NCBI GenBank assembly: GCA_038496445.1
Contig: JALMLS010000097.1
Coordinates: forward strand, 62,001-126,000
Origin: Trichosphaerium sp. ATCC 40318
Taxonomy: Eukaryota > Protista > Tubulinea
DNA length: 64,000 nucleotides
Reading direction: 5' to 3'
The translations under genes were made by a program, and so were the position numbers. The notes beneath the pieces are model-generated. The model searched no databases, was not told the origin of the DNA, and saw nothing but the letters and a program-made list of their open reading frames with translations. Shown here piece by piece: positions 1,597-57,381 of this stretch. The stretch's first letter is position 1, and every line of letters starts with the position of its first letter.

Positions 1597-1906
1597 GTCG
1601 TCGTTATTGGTGGGTACAGAACAGTAAAAACGCTGGCTTAAGCGAATTTTTTCAGAATAAATCTTCCTTGTTACATTTGTGCCCAATTTCTTTACTCTAC
1701 AAAAACGCCTCTTATAACGTTGTGTGCTACGCACAGAATACGGTGTAAATAGTGCTCTTCTAGCAAAAACTGACATTTTTTTTTAATTTAACAAAGGTAC
1801 ACGATTACCCGACAGGTTTTAGCGCATCATGCATGATGCAATTGGTTACCCGAAAAAAACCACACAAAATAAAACCATTTTTAGTCATAGCAAGTCACGC
1901 ACGCCA

Positions 1907-1919
1907 GTTCAGTGTACCT
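1907..1919 (+). repeat. Left target-site duplication GTTCAGTGTACCT of the non-LTR element
   Basis: Identical 13-mer at 11675-11687, immediately after the T25 tail. Confidence 0.93.
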
Positions 1920-2138
1920 GGGGGATGATGACAACTCACCTTTCCGTGGTATCCCCTAATAACAACGCTATGAGCTCGTATAACATAAATACGTTGCAAT
2001 GGATCACATTGGGACTTGGTTTCGCGGCTACTAACAAACCAGGTTATACGGAGACGCAATCGTTGGCCGAGAAGTTGTCCGCGGGACCAGGTACAGTGAT
2101 GTCCCCGCGTAAACAAAAAATTCGCTCGCAAAGAGTTG
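1920..2138 (+). ncRNA. HDV-like self-cleaving ribozyme (putative) at the retrotransposon 5' end
   Basis: P1 GGGGGAT(1920-26)/ATCCCCT(1951-57) with a first G-U pair; P3 ACC/GGT; L3 TTTCCGT; P1.1 TT/AA; P2 CAACTC(1932-37)/GAGTTG(2133-38) preceded by C-A-A-A (C2129). Starts at the first base after the TSD. Confidence 0.72.
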
Positions 2139-5100
2139 AAAAGGCTGCCAAGCTAACTAATATGGCTGAGGAGAGGTCTCAGAATACACCTCAAGGCAAA
2201 ACCGGTGGTTGGGCAGAAAGACTTAAATGGTCGCCCAGCTGGTGCCACACGGCTCAGGCTACGTGTCGTGATATAAAATACGAGCAGTATAATTCAAACT
2301 CCCATATTTTACTCTGGCTTTTATGGTTTTTAAACCTCATTGTATCAACAACAATATCAATACTAAATAAAAACAAAGTTATTTTTCTCCTAATAATTTG
2401 TATTGGTTTTTTGCGCGCGCATAAAGTTGAAATCACGTTCCTCGAACCGGTGGATATAAATTTCTCACAAAACACTGCAAATCAACATCTCCTTACACCT
2501 AACACTTATAGAGGACATCAAAACGCAATAACACAGAGCACAGAATTCCAGGTAAATCTTAATTTTTATTCAGTGATTATTACGAAATTAAAAACACAAA
2601 AACCTCTTTGTTTTTCCTGTAATCGCTCAGAATCCCATTCACAGATCAAGGATTTGCACCACAAAAGTCCATACCTCGCAAAACATCACAAAGCAACAAG
2701 CATGGCCGCTCCAAAGAACACCTACTTTCAAGACAAGAAACTCAACCGTCGCTACTTTGAAAACTTAACGAAAGAACAAGCTGAAGCAGAACTTGCACTC
2801 ATCACAAACCCTGTCCTCAAAGAATCCTACCGAAACTCTTTAACAGCCATCCTCAAGACCAAAGAACAAGAAGATGTACTGAAAAGACTCAACTCAGCAA
2901 CTGCTATAGCTCAATCCATCATACTTGAACGTAATGCAGATGGAACCTTAAAAGCAGCTATTGAAGATGAACCTGAACTCATGGACTACATGAAAGAACA
3001 AGATGCCTTTTTCGCAGAAGAAGAGGAAGAAGCAACCGACTCACGTTTCAAGATCCAATGTGTAGACCATTTCTCCAAATTAATGGTTTATTCTGGCTCC
3101 TTTGTTTGCGCTTCAATGGCTCTAGCAACAAATTCTCCTAATCCATGTGAGCTTGCATTAGCATCAATGGAAAAAGAAAGATTGGCACAAATAGGAAGTC
3201 TAGTCAAGGGCTGTTTCTTCGAATGGAACAATTGTACTTTTCTCATTTATGGAACCGACTACACCAAACTTACAGCAACGCAAACCATTGACTTGGCAAA
3301 AGAAATTCAAACGCACCTCAAGATCGCAAAAAACCCTTGTCGTATTCACCAAGTTTTCCTTCCAACCTGTGAAGACATGGCTGATACCACCTGCCAAAGG
3401 AATTTTTTTAAATTCATCTACAACTGTGTTGTTAACCGCAAATGGGTAATCCAACTACCTGAAAAATTCTTAACCACTACTATCACTAACGCTTGGCCAA
3501 CCAAATATATCCCTTTTGTCGAACATACAAGAGACTTCGAAAACAGGAACGGCAATGTCAAAGTCTTTGAAATCACGCTCCATGTCTTGGAACAAAAAAA
3601 TCATGTAATCATGGCTAACTCAAGCGGTATTAACAAGCTCAAATTGATGATTAATGGCAAAGCGACTCTCTTCCCAATCAGATGTAATGTTCCCTTTGCT
3701 CGAAAAATTTACATGGGTAAACTAAGCTCCAAACATGCAGCTCACGATGTAGCAAGAATGCTCGCATACACTGGTGTACGTTGTCCTTTTAATTATTATA
3801 TTTCCTCTTTCAAAAAACTAATACCTTTCAGATCTTTGTCCACTCCGTTGTACACGATTGTTCAGCCAATGGAGGCTCAAGAACTGATAACTACATCATT
3901 GAAACTCGCAACTCCAACCAAAAAAGTGACCTCATCAATGCATACCTCTACAAGCACTTTGTACTTGAAGTTGGAAATAGATCCACTGGCGTTTTCTTCT
4001 CGGATGAAAGAATCATCAGATAATATAACAAAGACACAAGCTGACGTCTTCATACCCAAATCCCTCTCACTAATAAATTTCCTTGTTGTTATGTCTTGTT
4101 TCTTGTTACTTTCACTGTTCATACAAGCTTTCAGTTTCACAGGTAACTACATAAGGAAAACGATAAACATAATTTACTTCTCTTTGTTGCTCTCTCGTAC
4201 TCGTCTCCAAAACAAACTCTCTCACAAACGAAACTCCAAAAGTAAAAAGCTTTGTCCTACAAAAAAACTCTCTCTATCTTCACTCTCAATTTTCTTTCTC
4301 CTTCTGTTCCTTTTACTTTCGTGTACATGTAAGTTTACTATTATAAAAAGAAAATATACCAGTACAAAGACAAAGTCTAGCAGAATTCGTAAACAAATAA
4401 ACATAATCAACCTTCTTCTCATCGTCTGTCAACCTCTTATCTACATACAAGCAAAATTTGTTAGTACACTAAAACACTTAGACACTACCTCCATAAAAAA
4501 GAAAGAAGTAAAAGTATTCAAGCACACCAATAATAAATCAATTACATTTAGCATTAACAATTCACGCATTCTAATAGATCCGACATCACCAACTAAAGAC
4601 CTTTATGCTAAAGCAATCAGTTCAAAATTGATAAGCCACAATGCAACTTTAATCCTTAAAACTAAACCATTACGAAAGAATACAATCCTAAACAGTTACA
4701 ATCTAAACAACTACAATGTATTATCAGTGATTGAACCAATTATCGGTGGTGGCAGATTCAAAGACGACATCAAAATTATTTCGTGGAATATTCGTGGTGC
4801 CTTTGAAAGAAAAGCAATGGAGATTGCTAGAACTTTGAAGAAACAAAAAGTTGACATAGCTTGTCTACAAGAGATACACCTGGACATCGAAGAAACCCAT
4901 AACCAGAAATTTAGAATGTTAATGAAAACACACTTCAAAAACTACGATTACTCATTCAACTTACCAACACTTCATGAAACAAAATCAAGATATGTCACTT
5001 ACAAAGCTAAAAAGATACGAAAAAAAGAAACTAACATATCAATCATACAGCGTAAAACCTTAGAAATAAATCCAAACCGTGCTAAACCTTTAGGAGGTTT

Positions 5101-8100
5101 ATTGACATTAACAAAAAAATCAATCTCACATAGAGTAAAACACATTAAAACTAAATACCCGTTTGTACAATCAATCATTGTAAACGACAGCAGTAAAAAA
5201 TATCCTACACTACTCAACAATATATATATAAGTGCATACCATATTAATTCAAAACTTGAACAACTAGAGATACTCATGAAGTCCATATCAAACCTTAGCA
5301 CCAAGCATAAATTTGCGAACAAAATATTCATCGGTGACTGGAATATGGCTCAAACAGTAGAAGATAGACAAGCCCTAATTGACAACAAACTAGTAAAATG
5401 TCACATATCTGAACTGAAATACCTAAAAATAATAAACACATTCAAGGAAGGTCTTGGTCTGTTCGATCCAGTATCCCGTTTACCCAAAGTAAAACGTAAA
5501 TTTACCTTTAGTCAAGTAGTAGTTAAAAAAAACCCAACTAGAAAATTTCTAAGATTAGAACGCATCGACTATCTACTCACATCTAACCTAAACAATATTA
5601 AAAAGTTAATTACACTCACTAACGAAAATTTGTCAGACCACAACCCCATCCTTTGTACGCTATCAAAATCAATTGATCACCAAGATGTTATAGAGTATAA
5701 ACCAAGATCAAATCCTAACCGACTAATCACAAGAAACATAGACTTAAAAGCAATACTTGCAACACTTGACACATCAGAAATACAAAAAGAATTTAACTCA
5801 GCAAAAGCAAGATCAGATGACATATCAGTAAGTAGCGAATACAACAGTTTTGTATACATGCTAACCAGAGAGATCCATACACATGTAAAGCAATATACAA
5901 AAAAGAGTAATAAACCAAGGAAACAAGACTTCAAAAATAATGGTGAATATGTACGTATCGATTCAATGATCAGAAAACTTAACAAATTACGTAAACTAAC
6001 TTTAGAAACCACGCTAAGAATCAGTAGAGTCAACACTGAAACTAATGAAATCAACAAAAGAATAACACGTGATGGTGACAACCCAAGAATACAGTTATTA
6101 CCCACCTTTTATACTAAACCGTTAGAAAGAGTAAATCTACGTGACACCATAGACAAGAATCTTAAAACATATAAAAAATGGCTACGTGGTTGCAAACACT
6201 CCATGGACATGTCAAGAAAAAGATATTATTGCAAAGCTATGACGGAATTAACATCAAGAGCGTTGTTTAAGAAAATACGAGACATAAAAAAATATGAAAT
6301 TAATAAAGGTAAAACTTCAGAATTTGTTCGTTACATTGAAGGTCAACTTAATGGTGTCAAAACCCTCTTCTTTAATCAAAACTCAATCCTACAAGTATTC
6401 TCAGAGAAGTGGAGTTCAATCTTTGCAAGTAAATACCCTCACCCAAACCAAAAACCAAACAAGTATCAAACAAAAATCCCTGCAGCGCTCACTCCAGCAT
6501 CTTTCAAAAAATTAAATAAGAAATACAACAACACCATATTCTACAACGATATTACAAAAAAAGAAATGCTAAATGCAATACACAAACTCAAGGCCTTCAA
6601 AGCACCAGGTAACACAAATCTAGGTATGGAAATATACAAAAATCTACCAACAGAGATCGAAGACATGCTCCTCACTTTATTTAACGATTGTAGAACCTAC
6701 AAAACAATACCAGATATATGGAAATCTAGCAATCTAATATTTCTCAGTAAAAAAGGTAACCAACATGACCCTACAAATTACAGACCCATAGCACTTCTTA
6801 ACTCAATGTATAAAATATACACACAAATCCTAAACAACAGGGTAGCAACATTTGTAGAAAAAAACAAGATAATGAGTGACTCCCAATTTGGTTTTTATCA
6901 AGGACGAAACATCAACATGGCACAAAGAACATATAGACATATCATAGAAAATGCCGAAGCAAACAATAAAGATATCTTTGTCATATATATAGATTTCTCA
7001 AAAGCTTACGACTCAGTCGAATATTGGGCTTTAGATCACGCTCTAAAACATCAAGGATTTGACAATGAGATACGTCAGATAATACTAAGTTTATTCAAAG
7101 AAATCAAAGCAGACATCATTTTACCTATGGGCAAAAGACCGATTAACATTGAAAAAGGAGTTAAACAAGGGGATGGCTTTAGTCCAATACTCTTTACACT
7201 TTTTGCTAATGTATTAATAAAAGAAATTGAATCAATGAACTGCGGATACCATATTCCTAACACCAATATAAAAATACCAATAATAGCATATGCTGACGAT
7301 ATAAAACTAATAGCAGACTCATATGAAAACCTTATGAAAATGTTCAATAAACTACTAGAATGGTGTGACTTCTACGGCATGAAAATCAATGTGAAAAAGT
7401 CAGCCTTTTCATACATTTGTAGAACAGACCCACAAGCTCTTTTCCCACCGCCTAAAGCAAAAAATAACCGAATATCCTACTTAAAACCAGAAGAGTCATA
7501 CAAAGACTTAGGTATTCTAATAAACCTGAGACTAGACGCCACAGACCAAACGTCAGAAATCAAAAGAAGGCATGCTAATGGACTATCCTTAATAAGATTT
7601 AAGGGCTTTAATGCAATCCAAAAGACTACCATAATTAACAGAGTCATTAACCCAGGAATCACTTTTGTAACTAACGCAATGTTAATAGATCCCAAGATAC
7701 TAAAAAAATGTGATGATAACGCAGCAGACTTACTAAGATCAGACGCCAAAATCCCATGGAGACTAAAACCTGAAAGAATCTTTTTGAAACATACTGGACT
7801 TGGACTCGAACCATTAACTGACCTACAAAACGCTGGTTTTATCAGTAACTTGATCTCAAACGGTATGAACTGCACCAACAAAACAACAAAACAAATCTCA
7901 AACGCTAGTATACGACTAGCTCACCAAAAGTTTAATCCAAACCATACAATATGCCAGGCCACACAAATTTGTAAAAGCCTTGGAATAAAGATCATACACA
8001 AATCGGATGTATCTGAAACAAGAACAGAACATAAAATAAATAGAATGGACATACAAACCTTCAAAAACAACTGTAACATAGTAAACTCAAAATATGTTAT

Positions 8101-8221
8101 GGCAACAGACGGATCAGTAACTTCGAAAGGTGCATATTTCTCAGTGGTACTCAACACGATACTCAAGTTCAACCGATCAGTCTTATTCGAACAAACATCT
8201 ACTAACGCAGAACTGGAAGCT
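1925..8221 (+). CDS. Retrotransposon read-through polyprotein, 5' part (leader, ORF1 N-terminus, hydrophobic linker, ubiquitin-like domain, APE, RT, RNase H N-half)
   Basis: One uninterrupted frame (ORF track 1829..8230). The first ATG inside the element is at 1925, but the real start may be 2702. The frame ends at the DNA-transposon insertion. Confidence 0.85.
2702..4023 (+). CDS. Retrotransposon ORF1 (coiled-coil + RRM-like), spliced: 2702-3775 joined to 3832-4023, 421 aa
   Basis: ATG 2702 (MAAPKNTYFQ). Intron GTACGT...CTAATACCTTTCAG at 3776-3831. The spliced frame completes an RRM-like pattern, KIYMGKL..HDVARMLAYTG|IFVHSV..DNYIIET..KSDLINAYL..TGVFFS, then TAA at 4021. Confidence 0.7.
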
Positions 8222-10197
8222 CAGGTCTAAAATTCTCGAGCTGTTTTTATGGTAGATACCATGAATTTGTGGTATAATTATACCATTGATTCCAATTTTA
8301 TACCACAAATTCCAGTATAATATACCATAAATCAAAGGATTTATACCATGAAACAGCCAAATTATACCATAAATATACAGTAGAAAGTGTGAATTTATAC
8401 CATATTTTTTCACCTGAAAAAATGCATTATATGGTATAATTCTACCATAAAACATGGTATAAAACACAGTATAATACCATAAAGTCTGGTATATTATACC
8501 TTAAAACTTGGTAGATTATACCACAAAACCAGGTGTATTATACCGTGTAAAAACTGTTCTAAAAATAAAAACACATTTATTAATACATCTTTTTTTTGTT
8601 TACATCCGTGACCTTTAGTTTGCCCATGTCCTTTTTTGCAGTGATCAAATAACCTTAAAAGAACAGATCGTACTTGCTGTAAGTGCATTGAATGGATATA
8701 GCATGAAACCTAAAAGAAGAGTTAGCGCCGGCTTGGTTTCTTGTACACAAAATAAATAGTCGTACAAAAATTGCTGTTTTGTTGTGATGGCAGCACTGAG
8801 AGTACCAAATGACCTGCACGGTGAAGCCAAACCAAGACTAAAACAAAGAAATGAAAATAGCTACCAACCTCATCGGAAACGAGTTCTAGTGGAATAGTAC
8901 CTGGTTGGGCGGCTAACACGTTTTGTTTTTTTTATATCACCTATTAAGCCTGTAAAACCTATGGCAAACAGCTTTAAAACAACTACTTTCTAGCATACCT
9001 TGTGTTGTGTGGGCGATAAACTGGTCAAGACTTAGTTTTATGCCCTGGCTTAGCCAATTAGTTTACATTATCACTCGTAAGGTCAACGCATGGGTGCAGA
9101 GCCTAAATGCTATCTGTTCCGGCAAATGCGGGCGTTTAGTAGGAAAAAAACCAAAAAAATCCAAAAAAATCCAAAAAAAACCAAAAAACTCGAAAAATGG
9201 GTAGGCTCTGAAACAACTTTGCCTTATAACACTAATCGTGCGGTTTAACACACATTGGGGCATATATCAAGAATGTCAAAAAAAAATAAATAATTTTGCT
9301 CCTGATTTGGTAAATGAGGCTGTATGGCGTTGATTGAGTGTAAAAATGCCCATGGAGGGGAGAAAAAAATGAGAGCCGGAGAAAAAAACCTCCAATTGGA
9401 GGTTTTTTGCGAATGGGCATTTTTCAAGCGCTACACGCGGTTTTGGTGTGTTTACCACTGTAGCGTTCTAACATGGGGTATACGGAGTGGTTTTTTCCTC
9501 AAATACCATCAATCGGAGAAAATTGTCCAATTTATCCCTAAAACGCCCGTAATTGGGGCGCGTTACCAGATTTCTCTCTTAAAACTGTTTTTCACACATT
9601 TATATGCCAATTATGTTCAATAACGGCTACTGTCAAAGCATTGTGTGGTATGGCGTTTGCATAGGTCCATATGCTATTAAATCAAGTGCAGACTAAGTGA
9701 GCTTTGACTAACTTATACTTATACGGTATAATACCACAGTATAATACCACATTTTATGGTATAATTATATGGTATAATGCACGGTATACAATACTTTAAA
9801 ATGCAGTATAATACCATGGTATAATACTGTGTTTTATGGTATAATTATATGGTATAATGCATGGTATAATATACTTTAAAATGCAGTATAATACCATGGT
9901 ATAGTACCATGTTTTATGGTATAATTATATGGTATAATGCATGGTATAATATACTGTAAAATGTGGTATAATACCATGGTATAGTACCATGTTTTATGGT
10001 ATAATTATATTCTATAAATCGAGATATGGTATAAACATGGTATAATGGCTGTTATACCATTTGTCCAAAAAACATGGTATTATACCATGTTTTACAGTAT
10101 AATTATATGGTATAATTATGGATTATACTGAGCTTGTACCATAAAAGGTGATTATACCATAAAATATGGTATTATACCATGATAATTTTCAGACCTG
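8222..10197. mobile_element. Non-autonomous TIR DNA transposon (1976 bp), CMC/EnSpm-like architecture
   Basis: Termini CAGGTCTAAAATT and AATTTTCAGACCTG (inverted, one indel). 2-bp TSD CT (8220-21 and 10198-99). Dense subterminal ATACCAT/ATGGTAT repeats in both orientations. No transposase ORF. Excision restores the RNase H frame. The superfamily call is tentative. Confidence 0.85.
9752..10010. repeat. 80-bp tandem repeat (about 3.2 copies) in the right subterminal region of the DNA transposon
   Basis: TTTTATGGTATAATTATAT recurs at 9752, 9832, 9912 and 9992. Confidence 0.9.
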
Positions 10198-10199
10198 CT

Positions 10200-11564
10200 A
10201 TTGAACTAGCTCTAAAAATAGCACCGCTAGAAGTTGACATAATGATTTTAGTAGATTCCACATCAGCTATTAATGGCATTGAGAACTGGAAAGACAAACC
10301 AATCAATGTCCAAAGAAAAGTAGATCATGCACACACATTAAATAGAATACATCAACAGCTCGAAAACAGGTATGGTACAACAACCTTTGAGTGGATACCA
10401 AGCCACACAAAAACTGATAAACAAAAACGTAACAGACCCAACATTGCAGAAAGAATTGCAACCATAGAAAAGAAATATACAAAGAAAACAGCATCTCTTT
10501 TCATTGATCTAAACGATATCGCTGATAGAACGGCAGGGATATCTAATGTACCAATATCACCATCAACTAAAATACCCATTGGCAGTGAAGATTGGGTTAT
10601 CACCCAAGCGACAGGTACAACACAAGGTAATATATTTAGGAAGCTCAAATCCAAACAACATGATAAACACGTGTTAAATTTACAACACAATGCTTCAGAC
10701 TATGGTAGAACAAGAGAAAACTTAATACTACCGCTATCATCATATTCTGCAAACTCTCACCTTGACATTCCGATAAAATTATGGCTCCTTAAGGTACGTA
10801 CAAATACATTACCTCTAAATGAATTCCAACATAAACGAAGTAAGACTAAAGGTCCCATCCAAGCTTACCAACTAAGTAACCAAATAAAGTACCCTAATGG
10901 TTACTGTACACTATGCAAAAATAGAAATATACAATGTACAGAAACCTTTGAACATTTTTGTACATGTGACAAAATAGAAACAATAAACGTGAAGTACCAC
11001 ACAAATAGGATCATAAAAGAATTCTTGAACAAAAAAACACCTTCAACTGATGCAATAGCAACATACAACAAACATGCAGGCGGTAACAATCTTTTCTGCA
11101 AATCAAAATGGCCCACAAAAAGTAAGATACCACCCTCGAACGATCAAATAGAATTAGCAAAACTTGGCAATACACAAATAAATAAAAACATGAAAGACTT
11201 CAAAGTTTCACCTTGGTACCTCACAAAAAACACCAACAAAACGACCCATTTCAGAGGATCCCAAGGATACGTTACAACTGAATTCATACAAGAATTAAAA
11301 CAAAAAACAGGGAAAAATAACACTAACCTCATTAATGCACTTGCAAGACGCTTAAACAACATGTATATCACAACCCTTTATGCCAAATATCGGACTAGAT
11401 GTCACAAAACGCATGCAATTAAAAAGACTATCGGACAACACACGCCAATGCATTATGTAAGGTGGCAAGCTAAACAACTGAAAATGAAACAGTTCTTTCC
11501 CATTACCAACGCTATACCACTATTCCCAAACATAGTTAACAATACAAATAGGATAATTACGTAA
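10200..11564 (+). CDS. Retrotransposon polyprotein, 3' part (RNase H C-half + zinc-finger region)
   Basis: IELALKIAP..ILVDSTSAI..FEWIPSH..NDIADRTA; LWLLKVRTNTLP..CTLC..ETFEHFCTC. In frame with the 5' part once the insertion is removed. Confidence 0.9.
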   Translation: MELALKIAPLEVDIMILVDSTSAINGIENWKDKPINVQRKVDHAHTLNRIHQQLENRYGTTTFEWIPSHTKTDKQKRNRPNIAERIATIEKKYTKKTASLFIDLNDIADRTAGISNVPISPSTKIPIGSEDWVITQATGTTQGNIFRKLKSKQHDKHVLNLQHNASDYGRTRENLILPLSSYSANSHLDIPIKLWLLKVRTNTLPLNEFQHKRSKTKGPIQAYQLSNQIKYPNGYCTLCKNRNIQCTETFEHFCTCDKIETINVKYHTNRIIKEFLNKKTPSTDAIATYNKHAGGNNLFCKSKWPTKSKIPPSNDQIELAKLGNTQINKNMKDFKVSPWYLTKNTNKTTHFRGSQGYVTTEFIQELKQKTGKNNTNLINALARRLNNMYITTLYAKYRTRCHKTHAIKKTIGQHTPMHYVRWQAKQLKMKQFFPITNAIPLFPNIVNNTNRIIT

Positions 11565-11575
11565 CATTTAATAAC

Positions 11576-11631
11576 ACAGCCAACCCAACGCTTCGGCGTG
11601 GCCCTATGGTGGCTAGAGGTGGGTTGGCTGT
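11576..11631 (+). other. Structured 3' UTR element of the retrotransposon (multibranch stem with a cUUCGg tetraloop)
   Basis: ACAGCCAACCCA (11576-87) pairs perfectly with TGGGTTGGCTGT (11620-31), enclosing ACGC-TTCG-GCGT and a second short hairpin. Confidence 0.75.
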
Positions 11632-11649
11632 ATAAAGATCGTTATTGAC

Positions 11650-11674
11650 TTTTTTTTTTTTTTTTTTTTTTTTT
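11650..11674 (+). repeat. Poly(T)25 3' tail of the retrotransposon
   Basis: T run between the 3' UTR and the right TSD, on the coding strand. Confidence 0.9.
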
Positions 11675-11687
11675 GTTCAGTGTACCT
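11675..11687 (+). repeat. Right target-site duplication GTTCAGTGTACCT
   Basis: Matches 1907-1919 exactly. Confidence 0.93.
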
Positions 11688-11783
11688 TCACAAACAGACT
11701 GAATTAGTCGTACGTGAAAGCCACTGAAACGCTACCCTGTACCGTGGTATGGTTTAAGAGTTTAGCTAACAAAAGTGAACAAC

Positions 11784-54852: not shown

Positions 54853-57381
<2,529 letters not shown>

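Follow-up and report, generated by a model that had tools for sequence, protein, structure and literature searches.

The BARE1 element of barley carries a single ORF with a facultative intron of 104 nt, its spliced RNA being translated into Gag only and its uncapped RNA serving as template (PMC3735527; this element and the other systems compared here are described from excerpts of the cited articles). Penelope-like elements retain introns through retrotransposition, for which an antisense template was proposed (PMC3846280, excerpt), and introners are spliced from host transcripts, with approximately 5% of the classified families being derived from non-LTR elements (PMC12130899, excerpt).

Since a LINE uses its own mRNA as the template for new copies, introns are expected to be lost from these elements. 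Spliced LINE transcripts, the SpIREs, are reportedly formed by human L1; to our knowledge, the control of the ORF1:ORF2 ratio is understood for few LINEs. Introns in transcripts of L1, Tad, kangaroo-1, Penelope and Athena have been documented, their importance being unestablished according to the excerpted text (PMC1636488). HDV-like ribozymes have been described to set LINE RNAs free from host co-transcripts; they may also support the translation of these RNAs, for which cap independence has been proposed (PMC6765202, PMC4035085; excerpts). In the present study, a LINE was analyzed within a window (the whole stretch of DNA under investigation) of 64,000 nucleotides from Trichosphaerium sp. 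ATCC 40318, for which a sequence-only reading had proposed a retained spliceosomal intron acting as a frame switch.

Architecture and relatives of the element

The element at positions 1920–11674 is a full-length LINE of the APE-RT-RNase H type, bordered by an exact 13-bp target-site duplication (5' copy 1907–1919, 3' copy 11675–11687); all features are given for the + strand, the nested insertion carrying no strand assignment. As had been claimed for the unspliced frame, no stop interrupts the passage into pol: the frame is stop-free from 1823 to 8227 and, starting with the ATG at 1925, runs through APE and RT into RNase H (to 8221); prior to the arrival of the nested insertion, it would have formed a single ORF with a length of about 2550 codons. 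The APE endonuclease, reverse transcriptase and first part of the RNase H occupy 4760–8221 (assigned by PF03372, PF00078, the R2 and L1 ORF2p chains and alignment). A nested element of 1976 bp (8222–10197; short terminal inverted repeats, 2-bp CT duplication) splits the RNase H; the ORF resumes after 10197 and reaches 11564, the region 10200–11564 comprising the RNase H remainder (PF00075 and ORF list), a cysteine/histidine knuckle-like motif and the C-terminus. This insertion inactivates the LINE copy, which is now dead.

The 3' UTR (11568–11674) contains a branched hairpin, a TTGAC branch-like motif and a T25 tail (11650–11674), i.e. the sense strand of the element terminates in T25 instead of poly(A). 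LINE 3' tails generally consist of a homopolymer or simple repeat, mostly poly(A). Self-blastn of the window revealed a single copy of the LINE and no long terminal repeats, with repeats confined to the nested insertion. Neither the ORFs nor the 13-bp duplication show decay, and the copy is therefore young. It is flanked by divergent genes which we take, from reading their translations, to be seryl-tRNA synthetase-like and OSBP-like. The host is an intron-rich microbial eukaryote.

The RT is of the non-LTR type (PF00078, E 1.6e-35), its nearest solved relatives being R2 and L1 ORF2p (E 3e-30 to 1e-24). The APE domain, positioned upstream of the RT, matched PF03372 under the gathering cut-off (E 2e-4) and aligned with the APE regions of the homologues; the RNase H matched PF00075 at E 0.0017, likewise under the cut-off. 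The combination of APE and non-LTR RT excludes membership in the Penelope-like elements, which possess a GIY-YIG or no endonuclease and a telomerase-related RT. The closest RT relatives are just 32–37% identical; scans of metagenomes for relatives gave none at first and then 80 distant loci, and a viral scan gave none. In a quick RT tree of 52 rows, which has no clade-named reference members, the element grouped with P0001, P0007, P0002, P0121 and P0122 (support 87), and this group was nested in a 12-row set (support 95); some of the relatives bear an RNase H. RNase H-bearing LINE clades comprise Proto1, Dualen/RandI, the I group and plant L1 (PMC4640811).

The 56-nt segment and the codon phase of its flanks

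The first part of ORF1 (exon 1, 2702–3775, 358 codons) has a host-like start context and a strong codon phase and is followed by a segment of 56 nt (3776–3831) that starts with GTACGT, contains a branch-like CTAAT at 3818 and ends with TTTCAG. The coordinates and signals of this candidate spliceosomal intron had been named exactly in the sequence-only reading, as had the rank of its donor: GTACGT is the commonest donor in the host set (19 of 57 introns) and the top enriched GT-hexamer of the host DNA (83 observed vs 22.1 expected). The host set was obtained by parsing five host genes into 66 predicted introns, nine doubtful ones of which were removed by eye (n=57; median 74 nt, maximum 197 nt; eight introns of 56 nt or less). 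With a score of 20.9 bits, the segment exceeds 36 of these 57 introns (scored leave-one-gene-out) and takes rank 1 among the 2193 GT-AG pairs on the sense strand of the element. Two pairs on the antisense strand score higher (23.2 and 22.3), and when the element was codon-shuffled, 8 of 60 versions contained an equally good pair at some position; in consequence, the splice signals alone are suggestive, not decisive.

The base composition of the segment (T 0.45, GC 0.27) was compared with the host intron medians (0.40 and 0.32); its T fraction was attained in none of 4721 ORF2 windows and in 5 of 1018 exon-1 windows. An intron model was favored over coding sequence with a best-placed frame switch by 13.4 nats, and the same contrast did not exceed 5.6 for the other GT-AG pairs in the true coding parts (n=753); it lies below the lower quartile of the host introns (16.1), the host value being in-sample. 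A 3n+2 pair of such quality spans any given base with a frequency of 0.0015. By every sequence test applied, the segment thus qualifies as a candidate intron of the host type.

Excision of the 56 nt (3n+2, with no stop in the unspliced frame) would result in an ORF of 421 aa from the ATG at 2702 to the TAA at 4021–4023, the predicted exon 2 (3832–4023) contributing 63 codons and the stop, with the unspliced frame open over the same bases. The claim of 63 open codons in the spliced frame was verified, and the codon phase indeed flips to this frame over 3832–4020: its margin over the unspliced frame amounts to +14.1 nats when the model is trained on exon 1 and to +10.7 nats when ORF2 is used for training, values that were matched by 0 of 496 and 0 of 99 held-out true-coding windows, respectively (part of this gap to the null stems from stops in the control frames). 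The fraction of G at codon position 1 in the spliced frame is 0.30 over 3832–4020 vs 0.28 in exon 1. According to the change-point analysis, coding in the main frame ends at 3688–3836 and coding in the spliced frame starts at 3832–3939 (95% ranges), and these ranges bracket both splice sites. The match of intron position and codon phase exceeds chance. The C-ending codons that had been regarded as the style of ORF1 were recovered in exon 2 (two-fold C fraction 0.63 in the spliced frame, 0.54 in exon 1); this feature is, however, not specific for ORF1, as the fraction ranges from 0.47 to 0.63 in ORF2.

Both the codon-phase flip and the two open frames could also be accounted for by the loss of one base from the A6 or T4 run, be it a mutation or an error of the assembly, that fused ORF1 to an overlapping ORF2; there would be no intron, and 3832–4020 would be the true end of ORF1. 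Homopolymer runs are present within the segment; the 19 other A/T runs of at least 6 in the ORFs are, however, all in frame, and the main argument against this explanation is the combination of the 13.4 nats in favor of the host intron model with the low frequency of comparable 3n+2 pairs. A base loss is therefore regarded as very improbable. Alternatively, a programmed −1 ribosomal frameshift within 3794–3831 might reach the 63-codon frame with no splicing: the spliced frame is open already from 3794, and a stem of −16.8 kcal/mol is predicted downstream of the A6 run. The canonical A-AAA-AAC heptamer is, however, in the wrong frame, the structural protein would become the minor product, and the splice signals would be left as a coincidence. 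Although a frameshift is required for the gag of HeT-A (PMC5009743, excerpt), this mechanism is the least probable of the explanations considered for the locus.

A third possibility concerns the origin of the segment: the 56 nt might have been gained as an intron after integration, in this copy or in a DNA-duplicated ancestor, with the active elements being intron-less and their ORFs overlapping. Intron gain driven by transposons is widespread (PMC12130899, excerpt), and this LINE copy did receive another insertion. Against such a gain speak the young age of the copy, as evident from its undecayed ORFs and 13-bp duplication, and the requirement that the gained intron be stop-free as well and join ORF1 in frame with pol; furthermore, a search of the window for another copy of the 56 nt gave none. 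A late gain is accordingly held to be as improbable as the base loss.

Predicted RNA pools and translation products

The interpretation we favor, and consider rather probable, is that the LINE possesses a facultative intron like that of BARE1, which is removed from a fraction of the RNA only. The spliced RNA would encode the 421-aa ORF1 protein with its stop at 4023; the unspliced RNA would be translated into a read-through polyprotein with endonuclease and RT and would also be the template for copying. The complete insertion, with the target duplication at both ends, retains the segment, and the template was therefore unspliced if the intron is used; of the earlier proposal that unspliced RNA is the transposition template, the retention in a full-length copy has thus been borne out, and the splicing itself is a prediction. 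Pol would be produced only or mainly from unspliced RNA, and cis-preference may keep the intron in new copies. If the switch is true, the intron was kept because only the unspliced RNA makes the enzyme.

The spliced and unspliced pools might differ at their 5' ends. A putative HDV-like ribozyme (1920–2079, located by descriptor search) begins at element base 1, the target duplication and the ribozyme-like fold being flush at 1920. HDV-like ribozymes form a nested double pseudoknot (P1, P1.1, P2, P3, P4) with a G-U at position 1 and a C in J4/2; the candidate fits these features, with A-U as P1.1 and a long insert in P4. The descriptor, which was built after inspection of the sequence, had this one match over 128 kb of both strands. 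None of the HDV-like families of Rfam matched at E up to 5, and plain folding of 1920–2085 by a method without pseudoknots was no better than shuffles (z −0.4).

The leader in the ORF1 frame (1925–2701, with the first ATG at 1925) shows a weak codon phase and hydrophobic segments at 2306–2434; it is stop-free, which occurred in 0 of 4000 simulations (about 11 stops expected). The same holds true for the pre-endonuclease region in the unspliced frame (4022–4759; 0 of 4000 simulations, about 12 stops expected), which carries hydrophobic segments at 4067–4123, 4289–4345 and 4397–4453; both regions share one frame with the unspliced ORF. ATG is absent from all frames of 2326–2701, i.e. over the 376 nt before the ATG at 2702 (P 0.015), and acceptor-like sites are positioned at 2511 and 2573. 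Together with the host-like context of the ATG at 2702, this arrangement would fit a capped RNA dedicated to ORF1. In general, first-intron splicing depends on the cap, and uncapped RNA is spliced poorly. A capped RNA with 2702 as its first ATG, generated by an internal start or by splicing into 2511 or 2573, would thus be well spliced; the full-length RNA cut by the ribozyme would be uncapped, poorly spliced and translated from the ribozyme region, beginning with the in-frame ATG at 1925.

The bases 3832–4020 had further been described as dual-coding. This designation is overstated, because a coding signature is missing from the unspliced frame over these bases and this frame would stay open by chance with P ~0.09 when the peptide of the spliced frame is recoded with the codon usage of ORF1; the segment 3776–3831 is stop-free by chance with P 0.5. 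The unspliced frame over 3776–4020 is likely a translated stop-free linker and not a second folded domain. Since its openness is not significant by itself, a different expression of pol also has to be considered: the intron might be real and spliced with no functional ORF1-pol fusion, pol being translated from an ATG of its own after ribosomes re-initiate close to the stop codon of ORF1; persistence of the intron would then be due only to the escape of the template RNA from splicing. Four in-frame ATGs precede the APE (3869, 3938, 4004 and 4091), and just 17 nt separate one of them from the downstream ORF1 stop; long hydrophobic/basic extensions ahead of the APE are also seen in the related proteins P0121 and P0122. 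However, production of pol from spliced RNA combined with reverse transcription in cis would be expected to result in intron loss, yet this copy keeps the intron; moreover, the frame is unbroken from the ATG at 1925 to 8221. Separate initiation of pol is thus considered unlikely, and the facultative intron with a read-through polyprotein is retained as the preferred reading.

With respect to the predicted ORF1 protein, no homologues were obtained among 2484 candidates, among 1.84 billion representatives or in G001; the matches in Atlas were all under 0.9, and the ORF1 pieces had no match in 81 metagenome loci with distant RT relatives. The RRM-like pattern that exon 2 had been claimed to complete was not confirmed: no RRM family was detected for the separate ORF1 pieces in Pfam or Atlas, and the single-sequence models of unspliced or partial ORF1 were of low confidence (pLDDT 38.8 and 53.6), exon 2 alone being modeled as an all-strand meander (pLDDT 53.6). 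Foldseek gave no match for the models of partial or unspliced ORF1. An RNP2-like hexamer is located towards the end of exon 1, and the canonical RNP1 was not found in exon 2. A match of exon 2 to titin, the sum of weak repeat matches (6.8 to 9.8 bits for the best stretch), was rejected, and a suspected tandem-RRM internal repeat was not supported, being equally good in 1867 of 5000 shuffles, with the unspliced control behaving alike.

Possible whole-element excision and comparison with known systems

The ends of the insertion provide a second potential pair of splice sites. The T25 tail together with the CAG of the 3' duplication (ending at 11680) constitutes a strong acceptor, scoring above 49 of the 57 host acceptors and with a branch motif upstream; in the 5' duplication, the donor-like GTACCT at 1914 scores above 14 of the 57 host donors. 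Splicing from 1914 to 11680 would restore the host region plus one extra base. Both sites would be supplied in this way by 0.23% of 108,280 host 13-mers, and an equally good branch motif precedes 1.8% of the element positions (both estimates are post hoc and refer to one insertion); such an intron would be approximately 40 times longer than any in the host set (maximum 197 nt). That the LINE makes use of the host spliceosome twice, by excision of the whole element from host pre-mRNA and by splicing of the nested 56-nt intron, is therefore a doubtful extension. In this case, the ribozyme would free an uncapped RNA that acts as pol message and template and escapes internal splicing, the nested intron would yield the ORF1 protein from capped RNA, and the T tail would be a polypyrimidine tract and not the equivalent of poly(A). 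If the T tail does serve as an acceptor as well, insertion of a LINE into the 5' part of a gene could cost little in a genome densely packed with genes. Excision from host transcripts is the property of the introners, which are mostly non-autonomous (PMC12130899, excerpt), whereas the present element would be a 7.8-kb autonomous LINE whose excision is predicted from one insertion.

The earlier statement that an intron of this kind is unusual for a LINE holds in part: introns in LINE transcripts are known (PMC1636488, excerpt), but no sense intron switching between ORF1 and ORF2 of a LINE was found in the titles and first lines of the abstracts of the literature searched, with most subscription journals and the Repbase Reports lying outside its scope. 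Likewise, no T-tailed LINE was found in the excerpt of PMC2657916. According to the excerpts of PMC4035085 and PMC6765202, an HDV-like fold is located at the exact 5' end of L1Tc/ingi, R2, RTE and baggins, as predicted here; an intron-split ORF1, a frame switch or a T tail is not described for these elements in the excerpted text. L1Tc also resembles the present LINE in its APE-RT-RNase H make-up and in the size of its target duplication (about 12 bp, 13 bp here; excerpts of the same articles). The introns of TART are antisense and non-coding, whereas the candidate intron described here is in sense orientation, inside ORF1 and required to complete the ORF1 protein (PMC1636488, excerpt). Penelope-like elements differ in their RT and nuclease, and, in contrast to the antisense template proposed for them, the ribozyme-like sense 5' end of the present element suggests a sense unspliced template (PMC3846280, excerpt).

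A copia-like splice switch is thus predicted in a ribozyme-headed, T-tailed LINE; this prediction, made from a single dead copy, is partly supported by the data presented. If true, facultative splicing would set the ORF1:ORF2 ratio, and a strategy of retroviruses and copia elements would be extended to the non-LTR elements; the system would also be a compact test case for the roles of a 5' ribozyme and the cap in directing RNA to either splicing or replication. The closest counterpart is BARE1, with which the LINE shares one long ORF and a short, U-rich 3n+2 intron whose removal leaves the structural protein only, with the unspliced RNA acting as template (both predicted here). In contrast, BARE1 is a Ty1/copia LTR element with virus-like particles, and the present element possesses a non-LTR RT and an APE and no LTRs; splicing adds three residues and then a stop in BARE1, and a 63-codon exon in another frame in the LINE. 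Splicing has been demonstrated for BARE1 and is predicted for the LINE (PMC3735527, excerpt).

Further splice-site candidates and predicted terminal folds of the LINE

A second strong donor (GTAAGT) of the APE-RT-RNase H retrotransposon (LINE; 1920-11674, plus strand) was located at position 4329, within the stop-free region preceding the APE domain. Two candidate introns start from this donor: 4329-4464 (136 nt; acceptor at 4464, splice score 18.2) and the frame-preserving 4329-4577 (249 nt; acceptor at 4577, splice score 18.7); splicing of the latter, if used, would take out the last hydrophobic segment of the pre-APE region.

At the 5' end, the predicted HDV-like ribozyme (1920-2079) has an A-U pair as P1.1 and an insert of about 110 nt in P4; it is overlapped by an ORF that starts 5 nt from the predicted cleavage site. 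The 3' UTR (11568-11674) is predicted to fold into a branched hairpin (-35.1 kcal/mol), the outer stem of which covers a branch-like motif; T25 in place of poly(A) follows the hairpin.

Nested insertion and host gene surroundings

An insertion of 1976 bp interrupts the LINE at 8222-10197. Its terminal inverted repeats are of the CAGGTC type, and it is accompanied by a 2-bp CT duplication; a palindromic motif recurs in long subterminal arrays (80-nt period near 9725-10115), and the ORF listing of the window contains no long ORF within it. The insertion is probably a non-autonomous DNA transposon.

The LINE lies in a compact divergent region between a seryl-tRNA synthetase-like and an OSBP-like gene. 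The former has an upstream in-frame ATG at 1776 (minus strand), about 130 nt from the LINE, that possibly adds an organelle-targeting extension. On the OSBP-like side, the LINE lies 23 nt ahead of the GTACGT donor of a likely 5' UTR intron of this gene (11710-11765).

Elsewhere, a divergent alpha-tubulin gene (54853-57381, minus strand) contains about 14 short introns, and many host donors show no exonic consensus. A gene that we read as secreted-type heme-peroxidase-like (31950-35586, minus strand; about 12 introns) carries a long, beta-rich C-terminal extension.

Relatives of the LINE reverse transcriptase

A GIEPNPGP-type motif is absent from the matching place before the APE domain of the LINE; the related long ORFs P0121 and P0122 carry GIEPNPGP, which we take to be a 2A-like motif, directly N-terminal to APE. 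Within prokaryote collections, the nearest relatives of the RT (L081 and P0002) come from short contigs that bear an archaeal MAG label, and they look like eukaryotic LINE contamination.
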